DNA from: Desulfobacterales bacterium
Lineage (GTDB): Bacteria; Desulfobacterota; Desulfobacteria; Desulfobacterales; JAIPEE01
Reading direction: 5' to 3'
Length of the DNA stretch: 64,000 nucleotides
Assembly (NCBI GenBank): GCA_021737275.1
Contig: JAIPEE010000018.1
Span: 8,970 to 72,969, forward strand
A program made the translations under genes and the position numbers. The notes below the pieces were generated by a model that saw only the letters and a program-made list of their open reading frames with translations, ran no database searches and had not been told where the DNA came from. Every line of letters begins with the position of its first letter. Position 1 is the stretch's first letter. Shown piece by piece: positions 3,009 to 35,092 of this stretch.

Positions 3009-4088
3009 ATGAAAAACTATCGTATTGCTTATATTCCGGGTGATGGTGTTGGAACTGAAGTTACTGCAGAAGCGGAAAAAATATTAAATACGGTTGCGGC
3101 AAAACATAACTTCACTATTGAAGGACAGTATTTTGACTGGAGCTGTGATTACTTCCTTAAAAATGGTGTTATGATGCCCGATGATGCGCTTGAAACCTTA
3201 AAATCATTTGATGCCATTTTCCTGGGCTGCATAGGAGATGCGGCAAAGGTTCCGGACCATATCTCACTGACCATGCTGCTGGCCATCAGGAAAGGATTTG
3301 ATCAGTACGTTAACCTGCGTCCGATTAAAATCTTTCCGGGTGTTACGTCTCCGGTAAAAGGGGTAACACCCGAAACACTTGATATGATTGTTGTCCGGGA
3401 AAATACTGAAGGTGAATATTCTGCCAATGGCGGCTTTTTTAAAATGGGGACGCCGGATGCCTTTGCACTCCAGACAGCTATTTTTACACAAAAAGGCTGC
3501 GAACGTGTCATCAAATATGCTTTTGAACTGGCCCAAAAACGTAAGAAACTCGGCACCAAATCGCCTGTCGGTATGGTTACCAACTGTACAAAATCAAATG
3601 CCCTGAACTATTCCATGGTTTTCTGGGATTCCGTTTTTAACCGGGTGTCCGTAAACTATCCGGATATCAAAACAGACATGGCACTGGTCGATGCGCTGAC
3701 GATGTGGTTTGTCAAAAATCCGGATTATTTTGATGTCATTGTCGCATCAAATCTTTTTGGTGACATCATCACTGACCTTGGAGCCATGCTCCAGGGGGGG
3801 ATGGGCTTTGCAGCCGGTGGAAATATTAACCCGGAAAAAAAATATCCATCCATGTTTGAGCCGATTCATGGTTCTGCACCCAAATACACGGGCAAAGGGA
3901 TTGTTAATCCCGTCGCCAGTATTGAATCGGCCAGGATGCTGCTGGAACATCTGGATGAATATCAGGCTGCCCGGGATATTGAGAACGCAACAGCAACCAT
4001 TTTATCAGATGGTAAATTCCGGACTGCGGACATGGGCGGCACATTTAAAACCCATGAGGTCGGTGATGCCATTGCAACTGCCATTTAA
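3009..4088 (+). CDS. Tartrate dehydrogenase/decarboxylase / D-malate dehydrogenase-like (isocitrate/isopropylmalate dehydrogenase family)
   Basis: The ORF is 359 aa. Motifs YRIAYIPGDGVGTEV..FDWSCDYFLKNGVMMPDD..KVPDHISL..FDQYVNLRP match the tartrate dehydrogenase subfamily of beta-decarboxylating dehydrogenases. Confidence 0.8.
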   Translation: MKNYRIAYIPGDGVGTEVTAEAEKILNTVAAKHNFTIEGQYFDWSCDYFLKNGVMMPDDALETLKSFDAIFLGCIGDAAKVPDHISLTMLLAIRKGFDQYVNLRPIKIFPGVTSPVKGVTPETLDMIVVRENTEGEYSANGGFFKMGTPDAFALQTAIFTQKGCERVIKYAFELAQKRKKLGTKSPVGMVTNCTKSNALNYSMVFWDSVFNRVSVNYPDIKTDMALVDALTMWFVKNPDYFDVIVASNLFGDIITDLGAMLQGGMGFAAGGNINPEKKYPSMFEPIHGSAPKYTGKGIVNPVASIESARMLLEHLDEYQAARDIENATATILSDGKFRTADMGGTFKTHEVGDAIATAI

Positions 4089-6026: not shown

Positions 6027-6093
6027 CTATCTCTGCAAATAGTCATTTATACAAAATAATACTTTCATTCATTGAGGGAATAAGGAGGCGCAA

Positions 6094-7182
6094 ATGATTA
6101 TCGGAATTCCCAAAGAGCTTAAATCAGGAGAAAGAAGAGTTGGAATAGATCCTTACTGGACAGGCATCTTTGTCCGGAAAGGCCACAAGGTGTTGATTGA
6201 AAAAGAAGCCGGTGTCCTTTCAGGTTTCGGTGATAAGGATTATATTGAGGCAGGTGCCAAAATTATCGATACCAGGGAGATATTATGGGCCGATGCGGAG
6301 ATGATCATCAAGGTTAAGGAACTGGAACCTCAGGAGTATGCGCTACCGCAAAATGGCCAGATTCTCTATTCCTTTATTCATCTCGGTGAGGAAGAGGATA
6401 TGAAGGTGTTTACCTTGCTTAAAGAGTCCGGTGCTACCGTTATTGCTTTTGAGCATCTTATTGACAATAATGTCAAGTTGGCCTTAGCACCTATGAGCGA
6501 ACTGGCAGCATGGAATGCTGCCATCCAGATGGCGAAACTCCTCTATGAACCTGAGGGATCGATGGGTATCGCCCTGGGAAATTTCTCAGGGTTTCCTTCA
6601 GCGAGAATAACGATTCTGGGTGGGGGAACAGTAGGACAGTTTGCGGCAAAAACACTTATCGGCATAGGTGCGGAGATCACCATTCTGGAAAAAAATTATA
6701 ACCGAATTGTTGAACTGAAAAAGTATTTTGAAGGTTCCGCACGCGTGCTTTACTCCAATGATGAAAACCTTCGTCTGTCCCTTGGGGAATCGGTTGGACT
6801 GATCAATGCACTTTATCCCGGACCGGGATGCATCAACCTGGTAACACGCGAACACCTCACCCTGATGCCTGAAAAATCAGTCATCATTGATGTAGGTGGC
6901 GGTAATGTGATTGAAACCATGCGTTATACCAAATTGGAAGATCCGACATTCATAGAAGAAAACCGGATTCATTACTGCGTAGATAATTCTCCGGCCCAGA
7001 TGGCAAAAACAGCTTCCAAGATTCTGGCCAACATCACCATACCATATGGTATTATCATTGCTGACAAAGGCCTTATCGAAGCTGCGAAAGTAAATCCAAT
7101 TATAAAGAATGCCATTAACTTTTATAACCGCAAGGTCGTTCACCCCGAAATAGCAGTCATGCATCAGGCTGAAGTAGAATGA
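6094..7182 (+). CDS. Alanine dehydrogenase / PNT family protein (divergent)
   Basis: MIIGIPKELKSGERRVG, IIKVKELEP, IHLG and ILGGGTVG are colinear with L-alanine dehydrogenases. AGGAGG precedes the ATG. Confidence 0.7.
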   Translation: MIIGIPKELKSGERRVGIDPYWTGIFVRKGHKVLIEKEAGVLSGFGDKDYIEAGAKIIDTREILWADAEMIIKVKELEPQEYALPQNGQILYSFIHLGEEEDMKVFTLLKESGATVIAFEHLIDNNVKLALAPMSELAAWNAAIQMAKLLYEPEGSMGIALGNFSGFPSARITILGGGTVGQFAAKTLIGIGAEITILEKNYNRIVELKKYFEGSARVLYSNDENLRLSLGESVGLINALYPGPGCINLVTREHLTLMPEKSVIIDVGGGNVIETMRYTKLEDPTFIEENRIHYCVDNSPAQMAKTASKILANITIPYGIIIADKGLIEAAKVNPIIKNAINFYNRKVVHPEIAVMHQAEVE

Positions 7183-7256: not shown

Positions 7257-9293
7257 ATGGCTGAATCCACACTACTCATTCACAAAAACATAGATCCTGA
7301 CTATGGTTTTTATATTGCCACAAAATTAACGGAATTTGTAAACAGCGACATGGGAGGCCGCACAGCCGGCAGCAAAGCTGAACATGAAGCCGCTGAATGG
7401 CTGACCCATGAAATGAAGCGCATCGGGTTATCCGATGTTACCAAAGCACCATTTCCCTGTGACATCTGGCAATTCAATCGCAGCACACTAAATGTGATTG
7501 AGCCTGAAAATATCAAAAAAACGATAAAACCATATCCATACCCATCCGGATCCACACGATCCGAAGCAATTGACGGAGAGTTGCTTTTTATCGGAAAAGG
7601 CTCAAAACGGGATTATGAAAATATTGACGCACATGGTAAAATTGTCCTGATCGGAATTGATATGGAAAAAGACTGGTGGATCACCCATCCAACCGTTGAA
7701 GCCGAACTTCAGGGAGCTGTTGCAATTATCAGCTACTGTACAGGAAGTTATAGCCAGTTAAATGCCGACACGATGAATACCCAGAACTTTGCGGGCCCGC
7801 GTACAATTCCATCCGTTAACATCAGTAAAAATGATGCGGATTATCTCAAGGATCTGCTCAATAAGGGTTCTGTTCGTATCAATCTGACGATAGATAAGCT
7901 TCTTGAATCAGGCGGCACAAGTTATAATATTATTGGAACGCTGCCCGGCAAAAGAGATGATGAGTATGTTCTGTGCGGGGATCACTATGACTGCCACTTT
8001 TGGGGTGTTCAGGATAATAATGCCGGTGTTGCCATGACACTGGCCATTGCCAAAACCATGATTGATGCCGGATATCAGCCGGAACGCACCATCAAATTTA
8101 TTCTCCATGGTGCCGAAGAGTGGGGTGCCATTGGTACACCCTATGATTTCGCCGTCGGCGGATGGCACCAGGTGTTTACCATAAATCCGGAATGGGCTGG
8201 GAAATCCCTTGCTTTCATTAATTTCGAGCATCCGGCACACCGTTTTGGTGATACTTTTTTTGCCAACTCTACACCGGAGTTTTATACTTTTTTACAGGAC
8301 CGATATACATCAGCACCGGACAGAGGTAATCTTTTTAAAAATGGATTTGCGGATGAAGGCCGCCATTTTTCTACAGATATTGACGGATGGAGCTACGCAA
8401 TCTCAGGAATTCCCGTAATTGTTAATGGTCGTGCACCATTAACAGGTCGCAACAATTACTATGAAGATATTTATCATTCAAACTTTGACGATGTCGATAC
8501 ATGGGAAAACGATATCTTTCTTTATAATCTTAAATTCTACGGTGGATTGCTGATCTCCCTTGATAAACGCCCTGCCTTGCCGCTTGATTTCAGTCAGCAG
8601 GCGAGACGATTAAAAAATTCTGTAAATATTGATGTTTTTACCCAATCGGATGTTGATCCGGATCAGTTCTTATCGGCTATAGATAAATTTGAAGCAGCTT
8701 CATCACAGTTATACAAAACGATTAATGGCCTCAACGAAGAATTCATAATAGCAGCGTCTAATCCTGATAACAGCCCTGAAAAAATGGATGGAATTACCTC
8801 TCTTGCACAAACGGCAAACCAGAAGATCCTATCCACCTATAAAGTGATTTTCGATGTCTTTTATAAAATGGATTTCAATGATGATCCGATCTTTGCACAT
8901 GAACATCCCCAGAGAAACATCCTTCTCTTAAACGGGGCAATTGATGCACTCAAAAATGGAAATACAGCCGCTGCAGTTGAAAATGCACTTGAACGGATTG
9001 ATGACAACCGTCTTTGCAGACATTTCAGCAAAGAGACCCTGTCTCGTTTCAAGAAAAACCTCTCTGAAGCGACTGCTGCTAAACGGCTTTACTGGGCAAA
9101 AGATAAAATTGTAACACCGCTGGATCTTTTTGAAATCCTTAACGCTCTGTCTGCAAAAGCTAAAAAAGGTGAAACAGACTTTTCGAATGAAATTTTAGCA
9201 CTGACAACAGCTCTTGAAGCACAAAAAAATTCATTTGAAGCAGCTGTAAATGCTGAAAGGGAAGGCCTGAAACAGATTATGGAATTGCTTTAG
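7257..9293 (+). CDS. M28 family metallopeptidase with PA domain and long helical C-terminal extension
   Basis: Zn-ligand contexts are CGDHYDC and HGAEEWGAIG. A PA-like insert (GKIVLIGIDME) is present. The ORF is 678 aa and is preceded by AGGAGG. Confidence 0.75.
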   Translation: MAESTLLIHKNIDPDYGFYIATKLTEFVNSDMGGRTAGSKAEHEAAEWLTHEMKRIGLSDVTKAPFPCDIWQFNRSTLNVIEPENIKKTIKPYPYPSGSTRSEAIDGELLFIGKGSKRDYENIDAHGKIVLIGIDMEKDWWITHPTVEAELQGAVAIISYCTGSYSQLNADTMNTQNFAGPRTIPSVNISKNDADYLKDLLNKGSVRINLTIDKLLESGGTSYNIIGTLPGKRDDEYVLCGDHYDCHFWGVQDNNAGVAMTLAIAKTMIDAGYQPERTIKFILHGAEEWGAIGTPYDFAVGGWHQVFTINPEWAGKSLAFINFEHPAHRFGDTFFANSTPEFYTFLQDRYTSAPDRGNLFKNGFADEGRHFSTDIDGWSYAISGIPVIVNGRAPLTGRNNYYEDIYHSNFDDVDTWENDIFLYNLKFYGGLLISLDKRPALPLDFSQQARRLKNSVNIDVFTQSDVDPDQFLSAIDKFEAASSQLYKTINGLNEEFIIAASNPDNSPEKMDGITSLAQTANQKILSTYKVIFDVFYKMDFNDDPIFAHEHPQRNILLLNGAIDALKNGNTAAAVENALERIDDNRLCRHFSKETLSRFKKNLSEATAAKRLYWAKDKIVTPLDLFEILNALSAKAKKGETDFSNEILALTTALEAQKNSFEAAVNAEREGLKQIMELL

Positions 9294-18580: not shown

Positions 18581-18600
18581 TATAAAAACCGCATAAAAAT

Positions 18601-18646
18601 ATTAAGTCCCCTGTAACGAAAGTTGCAGGGGACTTAATATTTTTCA
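18601..18646. terminator. Bidirectional intrinsic terminator between convergent genes
   Basis: A 13-bp perfect stem joins attaagtcccctg (18601-18613) and caggggacttaat (18626-18638). An inner aac/gtt extension closes a GAAA loop. The hairpin is flanked by aaaaat upstream and atttttc downstream. Confidence 0.7.
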
Positions 18647-27433: not shown

Positions 27434-30130
27434 CTATTTTTTTATATCGGTCTGTTTATACTCCCTGAACACTTCCATTAACTCATTAAAATTTTTCGGT
27501 TTATACTTCTTAAAACCATCATCATCTACAAAAACAAAGTCATATTCGATTTCTGACTGCACAGTATTAATATCCTCACACCACTGTTTCAAACGAGATA
27601 TTTTGGGCGACACATCAAGATCCGACAAACCTTTTGTTTCCACAACAACAATTTTGCCGCCTGACAGTTTCACCAGAAAATCAGGATAGTAATTTGAAAT
27701 ATCGCCATCTGCATTGACATAATCAAGCTTGAAATGGACTGCCAGGTAGTTTTTGGCATATGAAACAACATCATGACACTGTTCCAGAAAACCGGCAAAC
27801 TCCAGTTCAAAATAGCTGTCCCCGATGATTCGATTAAATACGGATTTTCTGGGCATCATATAGCCCTGATCCTTGACCACAAATGGCCGGGTCCGGCGCA
27901 GCTTGATCGTATCCCGAATCTCGGCATCCCCTTTATCACGAATGGTAAGTTCGTTGATCGCCTGTTTGAATGTTTCAATTATCGATTTGGTGGCAATCAG
28001 TTCAGACAGATTGCGCAAAGTATTTAGAGACTCCAGTTCAACGGCTTTCCCAAACAGATCATTTTGTACAAAAACTTTGATTTTGCCATACAGCACATCA
28101 TAGCCGCTAACCAGCCGCAACTCCTTCATAACCGTTTGGGCAAAATACCCGATCACACTCCGGTAATCAGCAATACCGGCGCTGTCCAGTACCGTAGTAT
28201 GATCCACTTCTCCAGTGGTAATATCCTTAAACACAATTTCACGCTGTTCTTCTTCTGTAAACTGCTGATAATCTACTGTTTTATAAGCCACCTTACCGGT
28301 ATCAAGATCGGCAAGATTTTTGTACGCCCGGTAAACTCGAGGTGTCAAAACGGGTATTTCAATATCAAGTGCATCGATATCCTTGTCCGTATTTTCGTTG
28401 TCTACTTCAACTACCAACGGCGTTTTCGGACCGGTGCCTTCACCCATTGCCTTTCGTTCAAGCTCAACCCCCTCAGCCTGTATGGACTCAACAAAATCCA
28501 TAAATGCATCAGTGCCGACCACACTAACATACTCTTCCGTACCGCCCGGATACATCTTGCGCAGTCCACGCCCCAACGTCTGTTCCGGTAAAATATTACT
28601 TTGGGCCGTATATGCTCGTAAGCCGACAATGGTTGTCACATTTCGCACGTCCCATCCCTCTTTCAGCATAATCACCGATACAATGGCTTTCCAGGGGCTG
28701 GTCTCTTCATCAATTTTATTTGCCTGTTTACGTAATTGCTCCAGTTCTTCCTTTTTCTTGCCCGAAGTCGCTTCGGAAATCTCACCATTATTCTTGGTGT
28801 GAATCGTCAGCACACCACCTTTCAGATCCGGGTAGCGATTTTCCAGATATTCCGCCACATCATCACAATTTCGGGTATCATCCGTCATTACAAACAAAAT
28901 TGCCTTCTTGCCCAGTTTCTGATGTTCCTCATATGCCTTGCGCCATTCGATAACACCCAGGTCAATATAATCCGCGTACTTTTCTGTAAACTTTGAACTT
29001 GTCTGTTCCGTCAACTTTTCTCTGCTTGCGGCATCAGGCAATACCGGATGTTTCACCACATTTTGTGAAATCGCTTCCACCAGCGGATAATCCGCTACTG
29101 TCTGCACAAAAATCGCCCCGTTATTATGTTTTGGTGTTGCCGTCACATCTAGCTGTAAGCTCAAGTGACCGCCTTTCTGCAAGAGCCGGTTGTGAATATC
29201 CTCAATCGACTTGAACCATGCAAGCCGAGCATCATGAATATGGTGTGCTTCATCGTTAAGCACCATCAGTTCACTAATATCTCTTACAATTGAGCCCAGA
29301 TCCACCTTGGAATCCGTCGTCGCGCCCGTCGGTCGCTTACCCAGGAAATAATCCATTGTATTTTCATCATCAGGAGACGGCGGAATATCTTCTCCTGAAT
29401 AAATGCGATGAATATTCGTCAGAAAAATATTTCCTGTCGGGCACACCACCCGAACCTCATCCTGAACATGCAGCGTCAGCTGGAACTCGTCTCTCCAGTT
29501 GCGCCCGTCATAGCCGTTATCCGGCAGCACGGGATCTTCAAAAAATATCCGCAGCCCCTGAAAATCTTTATAGATTCGATCAAGCACAATAATGTTCGGT
29601 GTAATCAGTAAAAAGTTGCGGGACAGTTCCGATTCCGGCTCATACAGTTTGTGAAAAAAGCTCCAGGCCAGCGCCAGACTCATAACCTTGGTTTTACCGC
29701 TGCCCGTGGCCATCTTGATTACATACCGCCGCCAGGTTTCGTCAAACATGCCGGCTGACACTGAACCTCCTGAATCAAACCGCATCAAGTCAAATTTATC
29801 CTTCGCGCCCACTACATCATAAAGATAAACAATCGTCTCCAGCGCCTCACGCTGGGCAAAATAGTATTCAAAGTGTTCCGTACTGCCGTCTGCTTTCGGT
29901 ATCAAATGAGGTTCCTTAAACCACCAGTTCAGCAGGCTTTTGCTCGTACCGGTTACCCCTGCATACCCGCTGTCGCGAAACTCTTTTACCTTACGCCGGA
30001 GGTTTGCCACCAGCGGCGGCATCAGTTTCTCCATACTTGTATCACGCAAAGCCTCGTCCGCAGGAAACCATCGGATGCCGGGGTCAAGAATTGCATGTGG
30101 AGAATCCGGGAAGTCCTTATGCAGCGCCAT
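27434..30130 (-). CDS. res: Type III restriction enzyme Res subunit (SF2 helicase + PD-(D/E)xK nuclease)
   Basis: Walker A is MATGSGKTKV and the DEAH box is VLNDEAHHI. Helicase motif VI (TLGRGLR) is present. The C-terminal nuclease motif is YYPDFLV...VVVETKG. Confidence 0.85.
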   Translation of the reverse strand: MALHKDFPDSPHAILDPGIRWFPADEALRDTSMEKLMPPLVANLRRKVKEFRDSGYAGVTGTSKSLLNWWFKEPHLIPKADGSTEHFEYYFAQREALETIVYLYDVVGAKDKFDLMRFDSGGSVSAGMFDETWRRYVIKMATGSGKTKVMSLALAWSFFHKLYEPESELSRNFLLITPNIIVLDRIYKDFQGLRIFFEDPVLPDNGYDGRNWRDEFQLTLHVQDEVRVVCPTGNIFLTNIHRIYSGEDIPPSPDDENTMDYFLGKRPTGATTDSKVDLGSIVRDISELMVLNDEAHHIHDARLAWFKSIEDIHNRLLQKGGHLSLQLDVTATPKHNNGAIFVQTVADYPLVEAISQNVVKHPVLPDAASREKLTEQTSSKFTEKYADYIDLGVIEWRKAYEEHQKLGKKAILFVMTDDTRNCDDVAEYLENRYPDLKGGVLTIHTKNNGEISEATSGKKKEELEQLRKQANKIDEETSPWKAIVSVIMLKEGWDVRNVTTIVGLRAYTAQSNILPEQTLGRGLRKMYPGGTEEYVSVVGTDAFMDFVESIQAEGVELERKAMGEGTGPKTPLVVEVDNENTDKDIDALDIEIPVLTPRVYRAYKNLADLDTGKVAYKTVDYQQFTEEEQREIVFKDITTGEVDHTTVLDSAGIADYRSVIGYFAQTVMKELRLVSGYDVLYGKIKVFVQNDLFGKAVELESLNTLRNLSELIATKSIIETFKQAINELTIRDKGDAEIRDTIKLRRTRPFVVKDQGYMMPRKSVFNRIIGDSYFELEFAGFLEQCHDVVSYAKNYLAVHFKLDYVNADGDISNYYPDFLVKLSGGKIVVVETKGLSDLDVSPKISRLKQWCEDINTVQSEIEYDFVFVDDDGFKKYKPKNFNELMEVFREYKQTDIKK

Positions 30131-30954
30131 TATTTACCTCCATCCAGTAGTTTGACACGGCTTTCATCTGTCAGCAATTTCATCTGTTCAATGGCAATCC
30201 GGTTTAACTTTGTCAGACGTTCGGCCTGGCTCAGACCCTCTTTAATAAAAAGTGCATTCAAATTTTCCATGTTGGCCAGGCAAACCAGTTGGGAGGCATT
30301 GGCCTGATCACGAACATTTCCTTTTTCACCAGGGTTGGCTCCGCGCCATTCTTTGGCCGTTATGCCGAAAAGCGCCATATTCAATACATCCGCCTCACTG
30401 GCATAAACCAGATTGACCTGCTGTCCCGTCAGTTCCGGCGGAATCAGGTTGTTTTTGATCGCATCTGTGTGAATCCGGTAATTAATTTTGGCAAGGTTGC
30501 GTTTAATATCCCAGCCAAGTTGTGCCTGTTCAGCCTCTTTGAGCCTTTGAAACTCTTTGATCAGATAAATCTTGAATTTTGGACTGATCCACATGCCAAA
30601 CTCAAATGCAAGGTCTTTATGGGCAAATGTCCCGCCATATCTGCCTGCTTTTGCTGTCAAGCCGATTGCCTTTGTTTTTTCGACCCATTCCTTGACGCTA
30701 ATCTTGTAACTGTTCAAACCAGCCTGACTTTTAATTATGGCGAATTCGCCATAATTAAAATCGGGGTTATGCACGGACTCCCAGATTCCCAAGAACTCCA
30801 CCGTGTTGCGGTTCCGCAGCCAGTCAGAGATAAAAAAGTCTCCATCCTTTGCCTTCAGCATATCTGTCAGCGAGATGTAATCTTCTGTATCAACAGGAAC
30901 AACACGAATATCATTTTCCAGAACGGATATAGTTTTTACGACTTTTTTATTCAC
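30130..30954 (-). CDS. KilA-N domain protein embedded in the R-M operon
   Basis: The N-terminal half matches the KilA-N pattern (ISLTDMLKA...FISDWLRNRNTVEFLGIWE...TFAHKDLAFEFGMWISPKFKIYL). The GTG start overlaps the mod stop (GTGA). Its own stop overlaps the res ATG (TAATG). Confidence 0.75.
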   Translation of the reverse strand: MNKKVVKTISVLENDIRVVPVDTEDYISLTDMLKAKDGDFFISDWLRNRNTVEFLGIWESVHNPDFNYGEFAIIKSQAGLNSYKISVKEWVEKTKAIGLTAKAGRYGGTFAHKDLAFEFGMWISPKFKIYLIKEFQRLKEAEQAQLGWDIKRNLAKINYRIHTDAIKNNLIPPELTGQQVNLVYASEADVLNMALFGITAKEWRGANPGEKGNVRDQANASQLVCLANMENLNALFIKEGLSQAERLTKLNRIAIEQMKLLTDESRVKLLDGGK

Positions 30955-33233
30955 ACACTCACCTCCACAATCGTCATGGTATCATTACCAAAAATATCCA
31001 CCACCTTGACCGCAATCTTGCGTCTGCCGGGGGTACATTCATGGGGGATGCTTTTTAATTCCAGTGAGCGGTCTTTTTTTGTACGAAAGCTCTGCCATTC
31101 ATTTTCAAAAATATATTCTCCGGTCCACTGCTCTTCCACCTCATCTGTTTCTGGATTCTGAACCCGGATAATCTCCCGTTTGCTTTCAAAATCAAAATCC
31201 ACCGACCAGTAATCGATCCAGTCCGTCCAGTGCTCTGTCAGTATCTCACGCCGGATAATTCCCTTTTTATCCTTGACCAACTTAACAATATTACCCTTTT
31301 CCACCACTATTTTGCTGCCGGTTTTTTTCTTGCTCAGGGCAGCCTCGGCATTGGAAATGGAATCCTGTGAATAGAATACTGAAAAATCCGTCAGTTCCAC
31401 AGCTATGGAGGAGGGCTTTTTCTTTTTACCTTTTCCCTTGCCTTCGATCACAACAGGTTTCACTTCGATATAGGAAACATCATGGAACACCACCTGATTT
31501 TTCTCCACCGCCCGCTTGTCAAAAACTTCCGCCGGAATATATTTCGGCGCGATATCAATACCTTTACCCCGTGCCTCATCCAGCACATTGGGAAACAGGC
31601 CCATTTCAAATTCAAAGCCGAGAATATCCACTTTGGTAATATGCTTTTTACGACACTCCAGGATAATCTCTTCCACAAACAGCCGCGTCACCGGCATATT
31701 GACCGGCCCGATCGCCACCAAACGACCTGACCGTTTTCCATGAAATGCCGCAAACTGGTCTGTTTTCTCAGCCCGGTACGCCTTAAGAATCAAATCAAGA
31801 AAAGCAGCTTCCTTCAGTTTTAACTGCTCCTGCTGTTCCTCTTCACGCAGGTTGGGATTAATACCCACAAAATGCTGTCGTTCATATTTCCCGAGATTAA
31901 GAATTTCAAAAGCACGATAATCTTTTCCATCCTCCTTGATCTGTCGCTGCACACCGATCATCCGCTTTCGGGTGGTGTGAATGGCAAACTTGCCGAGGTC
32001 CGTACAGATCCACTTGCGATTCAGTTTTTCCGCTACAGCAGCAGTGGTGCCGGAACCGCAAAAGAAGTCGGCAATGAGATCGCCCTCATTGGTAGATGCT
32101 TTGATGATGCGTTCGAGAAGGGCTTCGGGTTTTTGGGTTGAGTAGCCAGTCAATTCGGCTGATTGGTTGTGTATTTTACTTATGTCCGTCCAAATATCCT
32201 GAACAGGAACACCCTCGTGCTCACTTTCATATTTTTTAAGCCTCGGAACTCCCCCTTTTTTTTGGGGCCAGTGTAAACGGCCAGCCTTATCATGCTTCTT
32301 CAGTGTTTCTACGGGACAACGCCAAAGCGTATCAACGCCTTTATATTCATATCTGTATCCTCCTCCAGAAAGACCTCCGGCGGATAAACTGAGTCTTTGA
32401 TATCTTTCTTTACGCACAGGATCATATTGATCAAAAAAAGTATCAATATATCCTGGATCAGCAGGCTGTAATGGAAAATTCCAGATAGGGTTAAAGGCTT
32501 TTCCGTAAAAGAATAGGGAATCATGAATCATCCCATATCTTCCGGAATCACTGTGCCCAAATGCTCGACGCCATACTATTTCATTACGAAAACAAGATGA
32601 ACCAAAAACTTCATCAAGAACTGAACGAACTAAGTGATTTACTATTGGCCCCATATGCACATAAATACTTCCATCATCAGCCAGCAAGTCCCGCATCAAA
32701 ACCAGCCGTTCATAAATCATGGAAATAAAGGAATCCGCACCCTTTCCCCAGGTATCACGATAGGCAATCTCTTCAAGAATATTCGGCTTTTTAGTAAAAG
32801 TATCCCCGCCAATCTGGATATCCATGGAAAAATCTGCACCCACATCAAAGGGCGGATCAATATAGATCAATTTCAAACCGCCCTGCTTTTCAATCTCTTC
32901 CCGCATCGGCCCGTTTTTGAGTGATGCCAAAATCAGCTTGTTATCGCCCCAGATCAGCTTGTTCGTCCAACCCTTGAGCTGTCGTCCCCGCTCATCAAAT
33001 AGTGACAATTGCGGATCGGTATCCTCAGGTGTTTCCGCGCGTGGTTCATCCACCTGCTCGATTACCTGAAACGGCAGCACAATATTACAAATTTCATTGG
33101 TCTTACCGTTCCAGACCAGCTCCACTTCCCGTTTATCTTCAAACAGCAGAAAACGGTACTTCTCCGGCAGTTCCCTGTCCGACTCCAGAAACCGGACAAC
33201 TTCCTGCTTTTCCTGTTCACTGAGTTTTAACAT
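30951..33233 (-). CDS. mod: Type III-like DNA methyltransferase Mod subunit (beta-class N6A/N4C)
   Basis: Motif IV IYIDPPFDVG lies upstream of motif I DFFCGSGTTAAVA, and GYSTQKPEALLERII is present. The ORF is 760 aa, with about 340 aa after motif I. Confidence 0.85.
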   Translation of the reverse strand: MLKLSEQEKQEVVRFLESDRELPEKYRFLLFEDKREVELVWNGKTNEICNIVLPFQVIEQVDEPRAETPEDTDPQLSLFDERGRQLKGWTNKLIWGDNKLILASLKNGPMREEIEKQGGLKLIYIDPPFDVGADFSMDIQIGGDTFTKKPNILEEIAYRDTWGKGADSFISMIYERLVLMRDLLADDGSIYVHMGPIVNHLVRSVLDEVFGSSCFRNEIVWRRAFGHSDSGRYGMIHDSLFFYGKAFNPIWNFPLQPADPGYIDTFFDQYDPVRKERYQRLSLSAGGLSGGGYRYEYKGVDTLWRCPVETLKKHDKAGRLHWPQKKGGVPRLKKYESEHEGVPVQDIWTDISKIHNQSAELTGYSTQKPEALLERIIKASTNEGDLIADFFCGSGTTAAVAEKLNRKWICTDLGKFAIHTTRKRMIGVQRQIKEDGKDYRAFEILNLGKYERQHFVGINPNLREEEQQEQLKLKEAAFLDLILKAYRAEKTDQFAAFHGKRSGRLVAIGPVNMPVTRLFVEEIILECRKKHITKVDILGFEFEMGLFPNVLDEARGKGIDIAPKYIPAEVFDKRAVEKNQVVFHDVSYIEVKPVVIEGKGKGKKKKPSSIAVELTDFSVFYSQDSISNAEAALSKKKTGSKIVVEKGNIVKLVKDKKGIIRREILTEHWTDWIDYWSVDFDFESKREIIRVQNPETDEVEEQWTGEYIFENEWQSFRTKKDRSLELKSIPHECTPGRRKIAVKVVDIFGNDTMTIVEVSV

Positions 33234-33344
33234 AAAATATCCTTCATCTCTTTATTTCACCATTTCATCATAATGCGCTATGTAATTACTTTTCACGAAA
33301 ACCAATCGAATGGTTTACCTTCAGATAATACTCTGCGGTTGCCG

Positions 33345-33848
33345 TTATCCAATAAAATTTAATTGTTCGATAAACATCTCAACAGGGCGATTGTAACCAA
33401 TCGGACTTAAAATATACCTGTTCAGTTTGTGGTTCAGTTTAAAAATATCGGTTCTTTCCAGACCGCCCTCATTTTGTATAACGGCTTCAAGATAGGCCCT
33501 TTGATTATTCATTGAACCGAGAACACTTCTATTATTTGTTTTCCGGTATTGTATTTTCTCACATCCGGACAGGACTATTTCAATCCGGTTCTGGGGTATT
33601 TTTTCATGCAGTAAATTTTTAAATAACTGCTGCCCGAATATTAATTTAAAATTCTGAAAATCCGGCTTTTTGAGAGCAGGGATGAAAAGCGTGAATAATG
33701 TTATGTCATTTGTTATCAATACACATTTGTGTCTCTCAATATAAAACATATTGGCATGCCAGCTCCAGAAAGGATCTGTTGAATCGTATTCGAGGACCGG
33801 TTTTTCCTTTAATTCCGAGAGCATTTTTTGTGTACAGCGAATTTTCAT
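33345..33848 (-). CDS. Hypothetical protein (167 aa), upstream of mod
   Basis: A clean ORF with no competing frame. I cannot assign a family confidently. Confidence 0.5.
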   Translation of the reverse strand: MKIRCTQKMLSELKEKPVLEYDSTDPFWSWHANMFYIERHKCVLITNDITLFTLFIPALKKPDFQNFKLIFGQQLFKNLLHEKIPQNRIEIVLSGCEKIQYRKTNNRSVLGSMNNQRAYLEAVIQNEGGLERTDIFKLNHKLNRYILSPIGYNRPVEMFIEQLNFIG

Positions 33849-33938
33849 TGACTTCCTTCACCAACTTTTTGTTGTTAACGTATTACGGTTCTTCTCTTTA
33901 TTCGCGGTTACTTTTCCATTTTTTCCATAAATTCAAAA

Positions 33939-34160
33939 TCAATCTTTCATGGGCCATTCTCCATCATCCAATATTTCCGCCTGGTAACAAAACCTGTTCC
34001 ATTCAAATTCCCGATTTGAAATCGGGCACCGTAACTTTACTTTTCGATCACTGATACCCACAACTTCCCAATCTCCACCGCGTGATCCACCATCAATTCG
34101 TATTTTTTCGCCTTCTGAAAAGTTATAAGGTTTAAAAATTGTCACTTTATGTTTCGGCAT
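33939..34160 (-). CDS. Hypothetical small protein (73 aa)
   Basis: The ORF is preceded by GGAGGAAAAAATG on the minus strand (RBS-like). No family recognised. Confidence 0.45.
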   Translation of the reverse strand: MPKHKVTIFKPYNFSEGEKIRIDGGSRGGDWEVVGISDRKVKLRCPISNREFEWNRFCYQAEILDDGEWPMKD

Positions 34161-34294: not shown

Positions 34295-35092
34295 ATGATT
34301 TATGATGATGAACAATTAAAAAAAAGGCTGAACAGCTTTTACATATCATATAATAAACGGAAGTATGTCCATCCTGATCCACTTGAATTTCTTTATAACT
34401 ATACAGACATTCGCGATATTGAAATTGTCGGACTGGTTGCATCTTCACTGGCTTATGGTCGGGTTGCACAGATTCTAAAAAGCGTCTCTTTGGTTCTTGA
34501 TGTAATGGGATCTTCTCCCCGTCAATTCATAAATAAATCTACATTGCGTTCTCTGAAAAAGACTTTCAAAGGTTTCAGACACCGGTTTGCATCCGGTGAT
34601 CATCTTGCGGCTTTACTTTTTGAAACTAAAAAGACAATCGCAAAATTCGGATCCTTAAATGAGTGTCTGCTTGCCGGTTACTCAAAAAAAGATGAAACCG
34701 TTCTGCCGGCGCTTTCATTTTTCTGTAACCGGTTAACCGGTGAAGTAAATAAAGCGGGGCATCTTGTTGCCATGCCTGAAAAGGGAAGTGCCTGCAAGCG
34801 AATGAACCTCTATTTGAGATGGATGCTCAGAAAAGACAGTGTCGATCCGGGCGGATGGAAAGGAATTCCCAAATCAAAACTGATTATCCCTCTGGATACA
34901 CACATGCACAAAATCGGCCTGGTGTTTGGACTTACCATTCGGAAACAGGCCGATATGAAAACAGCAATTGAAATCACGTCGGGGTATCAAAAGTTTTCGC
35001 CTTTAGATCCGGTTAAGTTCGATTTTGCACTGACCCGGCTGGGTATAAGGAATGAAATGAGTATTGATGATTTTTTTAAGAAGGATTTTTAA
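34295..35092 (+). CDS. Conserved hypothetical protein, TIGR02757/DUF2400-like
   Basis: The ORF is 265 aa. The pattern EIVGLVASSLAYGRVAQIL...IPLDTHM resembles the DUF2400 family. This call rests on recollection only. Confidence 0.5.
   Translation: MIYDDEQLKKRLNSFYISYNKRKYVHPDPLEFLYNYTDIRDIEIVGLVASSLAYGRVAQILKSVSLVLDVMGSSPRQFINKSTLRSLKKTFKGFRHRFASGDHLAALLFETKKTIAKFGSLNECLLAGYSKKDETVLPALSFFCNRLTGEVNKAGHLVAMPEKGSACKRMNLYLRWMLRKDSVDPGGWKGIPKSKLIIPLDTHMHKIGLVFGLTIRKQADMKTAIEITSGYQKFSPLDPVKFDFALTRLGIRNEMSIDDFFKKDF

Follow-up and report, generated by a model that had tools for sequence, protein, structure and literature searches.

The KilA-N gene that separates mod from res in a Type III-like restriction-modification (R-M) operon of a Desulfobacterales bacterium contains, within its own open reading frame (ORF), a base-paired element that is under selection, and comparison with related loci indicated that the gene itself is a recurrent embedded cargo gene. 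The operon was studied in the window, the 64,000 nucleotides (nt) from position 8,970 to 72,969 of contig JAIPEE010000018.1 (GenBank assembly GCA_021737275.1). The mod-res junction is a recurrent, variable cargo slot, and KilA-N is one of many alternative occupants. An earlier reading of the same DNA, made from the letters and ORF translations (hereafter the sequence-only reading), had proposed instead that the KilA-N protein may be an integral third component of the R-M system. The features on which our argument rests are the following:

27434-30130, minus strand: res, 898 amino acids (aa); superfamily 2 (SF2) helicase with a C-terminal PD-(D/E)xK endonuclease
30130-30134, minus strand: TAATG, shared by the end of KilA-N and the beginning of res; resembles the canonical mod-res junction GGAGGGAAGAAATAATG
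30130-30954, minus strand: KilA-N gene, 274 aa, GTG start; cargo in the mod-res junction
30729-30760, minus strand: perfect 32-nt palindrome, TTTTAATTATGGCGAA/TTCGCCATAATTAAAA, inside the KilA-N ORF at codons F66-K75
30951-30954, minus strand: GTGA, shared by the end of mod and the beginning of KilA-N; translational coupling
30951-33233, minus strand: mod, 760 aa; DNA methyltransferase (N6-adenine, beta class) from a family of Type III-like R-M systems

The mod-res junction is a variable cargo slot

The junction was compared in 69 Res-family loci, those among the best 80 Res relatives in which the end of mod and the start of res are both present. Mod and res are directly coupled in 32 of the 69, through a canonical overlap of 13-14 nt in which V-G-G-K-K is the end of Mod and the TAA of mod shares bases with the res ATG (GGAGGGAAGAAATAATG). 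Three further loci have a 115-nt spacer, and about 33 carry cargo of 0.67-3.8 kb between the two genes. The KilA-N family fills the slot in about 10 loci and a separate, also highly conserved Bro-N family in 6. The other occupants are an AAA_21 ATPase with a small partner (4 loci; the partner is DUF4276 in L104), Schlafen/AlbA_2 with HATPase_c_4 (2), AAA with an S8 peptidase (2), HATPase with PIN (2), a GIY-YIG pair (2), DUF488 (2, once together with KilA-N), and RhuM, a Zeta-toxin-like kinase and HTH-M78 (1 each). The Bro-N, RhuM and Zeta-like slot genes were considered as KilA-N relatives and ruled out, since direct BLAST showed no similarity. Two slot cargo genes were seen in L012 (166-5480), where the order is mod, KilA-N, a 144-aa PDDEXK_3 nuclease (overlap -4) and res.

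A search for mod-KilA-N-res triads elsewhere, which had been recommended with the sequence-only reading, recovered them in about 15 loci, with no fixed association of the three genes. The insertion is therefore not peculiar to this genome. Since it recurs while many relatives go without KilA-N, the gene would be neither an obligate subunit nor a one-off passenger. The proposal of an integral third component does not survive the comparison: 32 of the 69 closest relatives have no gene between mod and res, about 33 carry other or varied cargo at the same place, a family with about 80% identity to the window protein occurs in Type I, Type IIG and type I-E and I-F CRISPR-Cas operons and also alone, and the divergence of KilA-N is nearly uncorrelated with that of Res.

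The GTGA and TAATG overlaps that had been noticed at the KilA-N boundaries are both present. The mod/KilA-N junction reads ...GAG GTG AGT GTG TGA, with GGAGG 9 nt upstream, and the KilA-N/res junction reads GGA GGT AAA TAA TGG, again with GGAGG upstream; the GTG start of KilA-N matches the N-termini of its homologues. Because the three genes are co-oriented and overlap at both junctions, their co-expression is very likely. To this extent the sequence-only reading is supported.

Two kinds of 5' junction were found. In one, Mod is four codons shorter and overlaps KilA-N through GTGA or ATGA (the window, L026, L096, L109, L113, L129 and L154); in the other, Mod is intact and the KilA-N start takes the place of the res start, as TAATG or TAGTG (L027 and L173). 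Across 13 triad loci, the pairwise identities of KilA-N and Res gave a Spearman coefficient of 0.24, with L124 and L136 as a clearly discordant pair (89% identical in Res, 60% in KilA-N); within sub-clades such as that of L096, L154 and L113 the two proteins co-diverge. The window KilA-N is closer to the copies in L012 (81%) and in the type I-F cas operon of L006 (79%) than to the triad-locus copies compared (63-76%). Since the KilA-N and Res phylogenies are discordant and the 5' junctions are of two kinds, the comparison shows KilA-N to have entered the mod-res slot repeatedly, in several independent captures.

A base-paired element is under selection inside the KilA-N ORF

The palindrome at 30729-30760 has a single copy in the window, with 0 expected by chance, and would form a stem of 14 base pairs (bp) with an AAUU loop if folded. 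Among 79 orthologues, the arms are complementary at 16 of 16 positions in 30 and at 15 of 16 in 26, and the 32 palindrome nt are nearly invariant in the codon alignment. Normalised synonymous-codon entropy is about 0.1 at codons 65-76 only, compared with about 0.83 gene-wide. In L089 both arms have changed in a compensating way, one from TAT to TGT and the other from ATA to ACA. The divergent copies (those of phage EW, a Streptococcus satellite, plasmids and other mod-res cargo) encode the peptides FNSIEFDGIR, FKLVEFDQFK and FKPLEFEGFR at the hairpin; their inner stem sequences differ, and 13-16 of the 16 pairs are retained.

A covariation test was performed on 48 distinct sequences, using the 14-bp stem, the 4-nt loop and 500 shuffles. 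Paired cells made up 94.2% of the observed alignment and 81.5% of the shuffled ones, double-sided changes numbered 75 compared with 19, and the covariation score was 0.383 compared with 0.152; for each of the three measures, 0 of 500 shuffles reached the observed value. Control positions obtained by sliding gave covariation of 0.06-0.15. Compensatory changes affect 8 of the 14 stem pairs, and the hairpin combines conserved loop-proximal (TCGAATTCGA) and distal (TTTAA) bases with a covarying middle. Its predicted RNA fold has an energy of -21.6 kcal/mol (z -4.4). These results show that a base-paired element is under selection inside the KilA-N ORF. G·T (33 cells) is more frequent than A·C (17), and pairing is slightly higher in sense than in antisense, from which we lean weakly towards a hairpin that acts as sense-strand RNA.

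No Rfam family reached its threshold at the hairpin. The matches were at chance level, for example Bacteroides-1 at 18.9 bits against a cut-off of 43 bits, and this weak hit was not reproduced when followed up in five Bacteroidota and other loci. In the literature searched, no paper linked KilA-N or Bro-N genes to such a palindrome.

Bro-N and RhuM genes carry palindromes of their own, and KilA-N-type copies also occur alone

The Bro-N cargo genes have a palindrome of their own, of about 30 nt (GAYCATTTYGYTGACGTCARCRAAATGRTC), inside the region that codes for the Bro-N domain, with compensatory differences between loci (L116 580-609, L135 311-340, L140 506-535, L164 3217-3246, L166 2178-2207 and L115 6333-6362). 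RhuM-like genes have a third palindrome type (..CTGTTCGGAATTTCCGAACAG.. and compensated variants), found beside KilA-N in Type I R-M loci (L035 3416-3442, L041 6561-6597, L058 6078-6108 and L079 6373-6403). A free RhuM-type copy lies between hsdM and KilA-N in L067 (7884-7916).

Strong palindromes numbered 223 in the 1.89 megabases (Mb) of fetched loci, as against 5 per 0.68 Mb of shuffled sequence. KilA-N ('K') type palindromes account for 93 of the 223, 83 of them inside KilA-N genes and 10 outside. K-type copies stand just 5' of KilA-N (L124 6100-6125, L128 983-1008, L083 712-743), form an array just 3' of it in L045 (sites 3267-3538 and 7854-7885), and occur in slots with Bro-N or GIY-YIG cargo (L164 2953-2986, L166 1917-1946, L145 3271-3519). 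In L145 and L146, K- and B-type palindromes alternate. The stand-alone K-type palindromes may be relics, binding sites or recombination scars. In L115, a 72-nt KilA-N relic (6043-6114; aa 66-89, 84-88% identical) lies between mod and the Bro-N cargo. Because the homology of this relic starts at the palindrome, the locus suggests a cargo replacement that would have had its breakpoint there.

The K-type core, TTTAA-N6-CGAATTCG-N6-TTARA, is also carried by at least 120 IMG/VR viral contigs (L183-L302; for example L184 7175-7204 and L213 6215-6244). Of the viral sites, 44 of 122 lie in ORFs that match the KilA-N hidden Markov model (HMM); the rest are in short ORFs or intergenic DNA and pair more weakly.

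The window contains one further palindrome, at 18595-18644, near-perfect over 50 nt: AAAAATATTAAGTCCCCTGTAAC GAAA GTTGCAGGGGACTTAATATTTTT, with 22 of 23 pairs, a 4-nt loop and runs of A and T on its flanks. It has no bearing on the KilA-N finding and probably serves as a bidirectional terminator.

The KilA-N family is highly conserved and promiscuous in its genomic settings

The window protein matches Pfam PF04383 over aa 17-140 (1e-23; 83.5 bits, cut-off 23.8) and thus belongs to the KilA-N family. It consists of the N-terminal KilA-N domain and a conserved, all-helical C-terminal half. Over its full length it also matches the PADLOC candidate PDC-S22 (PDLC04962; 4.1e-129, residues 1-269 on profile positions 1-272 of 281) and phrog_2657, annotated 'transcriptional regulator' (2e-57). 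Both the window gene and relatives of it lie inside a known defence system in the same orientation as its genes, as the embedding definition of PDC-S22 has it. Neither Pfam nor PHROG found a KilAC/ANT domain in the protein, Pfam found no helix-turn-helix (HTH) domain, and comparison of the KilA-N profile with PDB sequences gave chance matches only (E above 0.3). A search with the C-terminal half against 1.84 billion representatives returned 2563 matches with the same architecture or fragments of it, and no informative new fusions.

Protein searches returned more than 8000 homologues; the top 120 have a length of about 270 aa and identities of 75-87%. When one genome per species was scanned, at least 584 genomes proved to hold a relative. 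The best 80 share 69-81% identity and come from many bacterial phyla and from Archaea (Altarchaeum, ANME-1 and Woesearchaeota); across Bacteria and Archaea, aa identities range from 61 to 88%. In the 79 orthologues, synonymous divergence is saturated (pS 0.84) and non-synonymous divergence is low (pN 0.19), with a median aa identity of 72% and a minimum of 61%. GC and third-position GC (GC3) of the gene track the flanking genome (r=0.93) in hosts of 23-63% GC. Saturated pS, low pN and a GC content that follows the hosts indicate that the gene has resided long in its hosts under very strong purifying selection, and that one sequence did not spread recently.

The settings of the family vary widely. 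In type I-E CRISPR-Cas a relative lies between the WYL regulator and cas3, and in type I-F between cas1 and cas2-3, abutting both. CRISPR-Cas-embedded copies about 79% identical to the window protein were seen in L001 (8001-8834), L006 (7333-8160) and L022 (7992-8819), and in L006 a 40-aa ORF precedes the I-F-embedded copy. In the best 80 genome loci, the 543 neighbours fell into 426 clusters. The genes directly upstream include HsdM (5), Type III/II methyltransferases (3), Cas1 (2), DUF1016 and ORF6N, and those directly downstream HsdS (6), ResIII (5), Cas3 (3), UvrD, RhuM and others. PDDEXK_3, RecQ, TerB_N, DUF4391, an Eco57I-type methyltransferase and an archaeal HsdS are joined to KilA-N by -4, -1 or 0 nt. 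Note that the PADLOC neighbour counts were swamped by redundant R-M models and added little beyond Pfam. Outside these operons, Staphylococcus phage EW has KilA-N between an ImmA-like protease and the integrase, a Streptococcus satellite has it between the repressor and integrase genes, and on a Xenorhabdus plasmid it is the neighbour of a Qat system. The family is rare in phage (18 of 50,697) and plasmid (27 of 72,556) records.

A role as R-M controller (C) protein was considered and rejected. The protein has no HTH, the window offers no non-coding DNA upstream of the gene, and upstream of 53 stand-alone KilA-N genes we found only AT-rich k-mers, no better than shuffles, and no conserved operator.

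Mod and Res form a Type III-like pair

The motifs reported by the sequence-only reading are visible in the translations: in Mod, DPPF near aa 127 followed by FCGSGTT near aa 403, and in Res, GSGKT (Walker A), DEAH and PD...ExK (YYPDF...VVETKG). Mod has the order of a beta-class N6-adenine methyltransferase, with motif IV (DPPF/Y) N-terminal to motif I (FxGxG) and the target recognition domain between them. It matches Pfam N6_N4_Mtase (5e-42), has MTase_III (PDLC03633, 2e-101) as its best PADLOC model, and among PDB sequences is similar to EcoP15I Mod (4zcf, 5e-12) and to Helicobacter pylori Mod (6k0w). Res combines SF2 helicase motifs with a C-terminal PD-(D/E)xK nuclease; it matches ResIII (Pfam, 7e-15) and REase_III (PADLOC, 3e-19), with weak TnsA-like and RE_endonuc matches at aa 762-853. 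Its match to NCBIfam NF046055 (BPTD_3080) covers aa 37-387 only and, at 264 bits, is below the 800-bit cut-off, which leaves Res outside that family. No relative of Res was found among PDB sequences. The assignment of the pair to Type III can thus be kept as Type III-like, MTase_III and REase_III being the best PADLOC models. In Type III systems, Mod hemimethylates its site, and ATP-dependent cleavage needs two inversely oriented unmethylated sites.

The remark that Mod is long after motif I was also correct: about 350 aa follow the motif, compared with about 180 aa left in H. pylori Mod (618 aa), whose alignment ends at residue 441. However, homologues in more than 60 loci are 65-72% identical over all 760 aa, and the extension of about 350 aa is a conserved trait of the whole Mod family. 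The window Mod lacks the last four codons (GGKK) of its canonical relatives; these have a two-gene mod-then-res unit with the TAATG overlap, and in the window the pair is split by KilA-N. At least 576 metagenome stretches, of marine, gut, sediment and freshwater origin, hold a relative of Res; over about 892 aa the best 80 have 77-84% identity. In the window and in L096-L175, Res is unusually conserved for a restriction enzyme.

The upstream ORFs lie outside the R-M unit

The five minus-strand ORFs described by the sequence-only reading were all confirmed, in the order and at the positions it gave. Upstream of mod they are accompanied by a promoter-like site:

33267-33296, minus strand: promoter-like site GTGAAA-18-TATGAT, a consensus match only, in the 111-nt gap upstream of mod
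33345-33848, minus strand: DUF6933 gene, 167 aa; matches PADLOC candidate PDC-S63
33939-34160, minus strand: orphan ORF, 73 aa; no family detected

The promoter-like site is possibly the promoter of the operon; since 13 such sites were found and 15.4 expected, it is no evidence alone. The 167-aa ORF matches Pfam DUF6933 (2e-45; 154.8 bits, cut-off 27) and PDC-S63 (PADLOC, 7e-27). The 73-aa ORF has no Pfam, NCBIfam, PADLOC or PHROG match, and was also called as a gene in an independent assembly (L177). None of the 80 Res loci has a DUF6933 homologue, and in about 176 related Res/KilA-N loci there is no homologue of either ORF. The homologues of DUF6933 adjoin Fic, Gp49/HTH, ParE/RelB or MjaI-type R-M genes, and in the loci compared no conserved small ORF precedes them. 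Of the two possibilities raised earlier, that these ORFs are further accessory components or that they are unrelated genes, the comparison bears out the latter: both ORFs are absent from all Res and KilA-N loci, and the DUF6933 relatives sit in variable contexts and lack a 73-aa partner. The DUF6933 gene is a neighbouring stand-alone candidate outside the R-M unit. In one homologue, P0467 (195 aa), DUF6933 is joined to a GIY-YIG nuclease, a fusion that hints at a nuclease-associated role.

At the upstream edge of the island, a DUF2400/TIGR02757 gene (34295-35092, plus strand) is divergent from the 73-aa ORF; this gene and ordinary metabolic genes form the island edges in the window. No tRNA gene was found in the window and no convincing repeats flank the island, in agreement with the earlier remark that it carries no mobility signature.

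Possible roles of the KilA-N gene

In view of the comparisons above, it is highly probable that KilA-N is not part of the Type III enzyme and instead is an autonomous cargo gene embedded in its operon. The fuller reading that we favour, with moderate confidence, is that of an autonomous embedded cargo gene which acts as a second-line module and has its own intragenic hairpin. ORF-precise insertion would put KilA-N under the mod promoter and couple it translationally on both sides, and the host operon would give it co-transfer and co-expression. The protein might be a DNA- or hairpin-binding effector of growth arrest or abortive infection, which would back up the host operon when a phage disables it, like PrrC, PARIS and CreP, a logic that Payne et al. 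and Shu et al. have discussed. Because the company in the slot (PARIS-like ATPases, PIN, Zeta-like kinases and GIY-YIG) and the placement in phage lysogeny modules point in this direction, a second-line defence or growth-arrest module is, by analogy of position and company, the most likely identity of KilA-N; that its job is phage defence in particular we put at slightly below an even chance. The hairpin would be the gene's own cis-regulatory or recognition element, either an mRNA structure by which expression is limited or sensed, or a binding site for the KilA-N protein. Since the gene has no flanking non-coding DNA, its control element would have to lie inside the ORF. Any particular role for the hairpin is, however, doubtful at present.

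Several results weigh against this reading. Standard pairing of the hairpin is 94.2% in sense and 91.8% in antisense, and it may act as RNA, single-stranded DNA or double-stranded DNA. AlphaFold2 models of KilA-N reached a pLDDT of 46.7 with a 27-sequence alignment and of 51.1 with 46 sequences (the Streptococcus subfamily added), both too poor for use. R-M or CRISPR genes do not directly adjoin KilA-N in about three quarters of the 80 genome loci, and some neighbours are ABC transporters. Identity of at least 61% across domains of life is atypical for defence effectors and would suit a regulator or a protein that has a universal partner. Finally, the literature searched contained no experimental report on PDC-S22, hence the defence role rests on guilt by embedding.

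Other explanations were weighed against the same evidence. If KilA-N were an integral third component, it would serve the Type III enzyme as a controller, target-recognition accessory or sensor, like a C protein that delays res. The stop/start overlaps on both sides, the DNA-binding domain, the recurrence of the triad in about 15 loci and the repeated position directly 5' of a nuclease gene (Res, Cas3 or Cas2-3) would all fit such a role. Against it stand the plain, directly coupled mod-res of so many close relatives, the unrelated cargo in the same slot, the occurrence of the same protein in unrelated operons and alone, the failure of KilA-N and Res to co-diverge, and, for a controller, the lack of a conserved operator upstream of the 53 stand-alone genes and of an HTH like that of C proteins; we regard this explanation as very improbable. 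KilA-N could alternatively be a selfish, ORF-sized mobile cassette that lodges in often-transferred, constitutively expressed operons, with the palindrome as its recombination or mobility signal. ORF-precise junctions (-4, -1 or 0 nt) in many unrelated operons, repeated independent captures, decayed KilA-N copies in L113 and L034, the L115 relic that starts at the palindrome, and K-type palindromes alone in slots, beside KilA-N (L124, L128, L164, L166 and the L045 array) and in phage intergenic DNA are what a cassette might leave behind. Yet no transposase, integrase or HUH gene travels with KilA-N, the palindrome is mid-gene and not at the gene ends, the family is rare on plasmids and in phages, and the ameliorated composition and saturated synonymous sites indicate long residence with purifying selection on the whole 270-aa protein, which makes a cassette unlikely.

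We also considered a portable expression governor, in which KilA-N would bind its own hairpin, either in the form of RNA or as a DNA roadblock, and set its own level and, by polarity, that of a downstream toxic nuclease or specificity gene. Conserved loop-proximal and distal bases with a covarying middle are the pattern expected of a protein-recognised stem-loop, extra K-type copies adjoin KilA-N genes, the downstream genes are often nucleases or helicases, and the Bro-N and RhuM cargo genes have palindromes of their own. On the other hand, many KilA-N copies have no downstream partner or a convergent one, and the canonical mod-res junction needs no governor; we judge a governor decidedly unlikely. 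A bolder version of the embedded second-line module, which we offer only as a tentative possibility, is that KilA-N, and by analogy the Bro-N and RhuM cargo, are one-gene modules whose protein binds the intragenic hairpin, either as an RNA cis-antitoxin or sensor or as a single-stranded DNA or cruciform site, the stand-alone copies being further targets. If true, this would be a new class of element, a protein plus an intragenic hairpin, spread from Bacteria to Archaea, and it would explain both the ORF-precise portability and the extraordinary sequence conservation.

For the locus itself, these results correct a tempting misreading, that of a three-subunit Type III enzyme; about half of the loci have the slot occupied by defence- or toxin-like modules of various kinds. 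With these results guilt by embedding reaches Type III R-M and CRISPR-Cas operons as well, and a list of candidates is at hand. KilA-N (PDC-S22) is among the most conserved defence-associated proteins that we met, and identity of at least 61% between Bacteria and Archaea with saturated synonymous sites would point to a universal target or a self-referential constraint. The hairpin could explain how genes of ORF size without a promoter come to regulate themselves or to pass from one operon to another.

Comparison with known systems

The pair resembles the classical Type III R-M systems (EcoP15I and EcoP1I) in that mod precedes res, the beta-class Mod is detectably similar to EcoP15I Mod, and Res is a helicase with a C-terminal PD-(D/E)xK nuclease. 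It differs from them in a Res that has no sequence-detectable PDB relative and whose family is distant from EcoP15I Res, in a C-terminal extension of Mod about 170 aa longer, in the unusual conservation of its family (77-84% for Res) and in a mod-res junction that is a cargo slot.

The EcoprrI Type I R-M locus contains PrrC, an ABC-ATPase with an anticodon nuclease; PrrC hardly occurs outside Type I loci. As with PrrC and PARIS, the window has an extra co-expressed gene inside an R-M operon, for which a backup that fires when a phage disables the R-M enzyme has been proposed, and in relatives this very slot between mod and res can hold ABC-ATPase pairs of the PARIS/AbiL kind. Unlike them, the window KilA-N has no sequence or domain relationship to these systems, and its family is promiscuous across operon types.

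Phage KilA/antirepressor-type proteins (P1 KilA and the Bro-N and ORF6N/RhuM families) were reportedly described by Iyer et al. in 2002. In the window protein, as in phage KilA-type proteins, a KilA-N DNA-binding domain stands at the N-terminus and a separate module at the C-terminus, and Bro-N and RhuM proteins fill the same slot in its relatives. In contrast, its C-terminal half is not KilAC by sequence, and its family is mostly chromosomal.

CrePA is a phage KilA-derived anti-anti-defence toxin inside a cas operon (Shu et al., bioRxiv 10.1101/2024.01.05.574328); its protein, CreP, has 103 aa and KilAC as its only domain, is encoded between cas3 and csy1 in Acinetobacter type I-F and is repressed by the crRNA-like CreA (Shu et al., bioRxiv 10.1101/2024.01.05.574328). 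Relatives of the window KilA-N likewise lie inside I-E and I-F cas operons. However, the window protein has a KilA-N domain and no KilAC/ANT match, its relatives sit 5' of cas3, and the window has no CreA-like element. A review calls CreP 'KilA-N'; the primary paper shows it to be KilAC-only, and we rejected an identification of the window gene with CreP, since domain, size and position differ and there are no cas genes in the region of the window.

The closest precedent is the work of Payne et al. (bioRxiv 10.1101/2024.01.29.577857), in which Hma, BREX, DISARM and Type I R-M systems were mined and PDCs are described as genes embedded in BREX, DISARM or Type I R-M; KilA was not found by name in its text or in the supplements searched. 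Like those embedded candidates, the window KilA-N is nested and co-oriented within a multi-gene defence system and matches PDC-S22, and the DUF6933 gene matches PDC-S63. Embedding in Type III and CRISPR-Cas operons lies outside that analysis, which also has no census of the mod-res slot, no intragenic hairpin and no account of the extreme conservation. Thus the embedding of genes in defence operons, and the family itself as candidate PDC-S22, were already known. What is new is the census of the Type III mod-res slot, the embedding of the KilA-N family in CRISPR-Cas operons, the degree of its conservation and, above all, the covarying intragenic hairpin with its Bro-N and RhuM analogues and its free copies.

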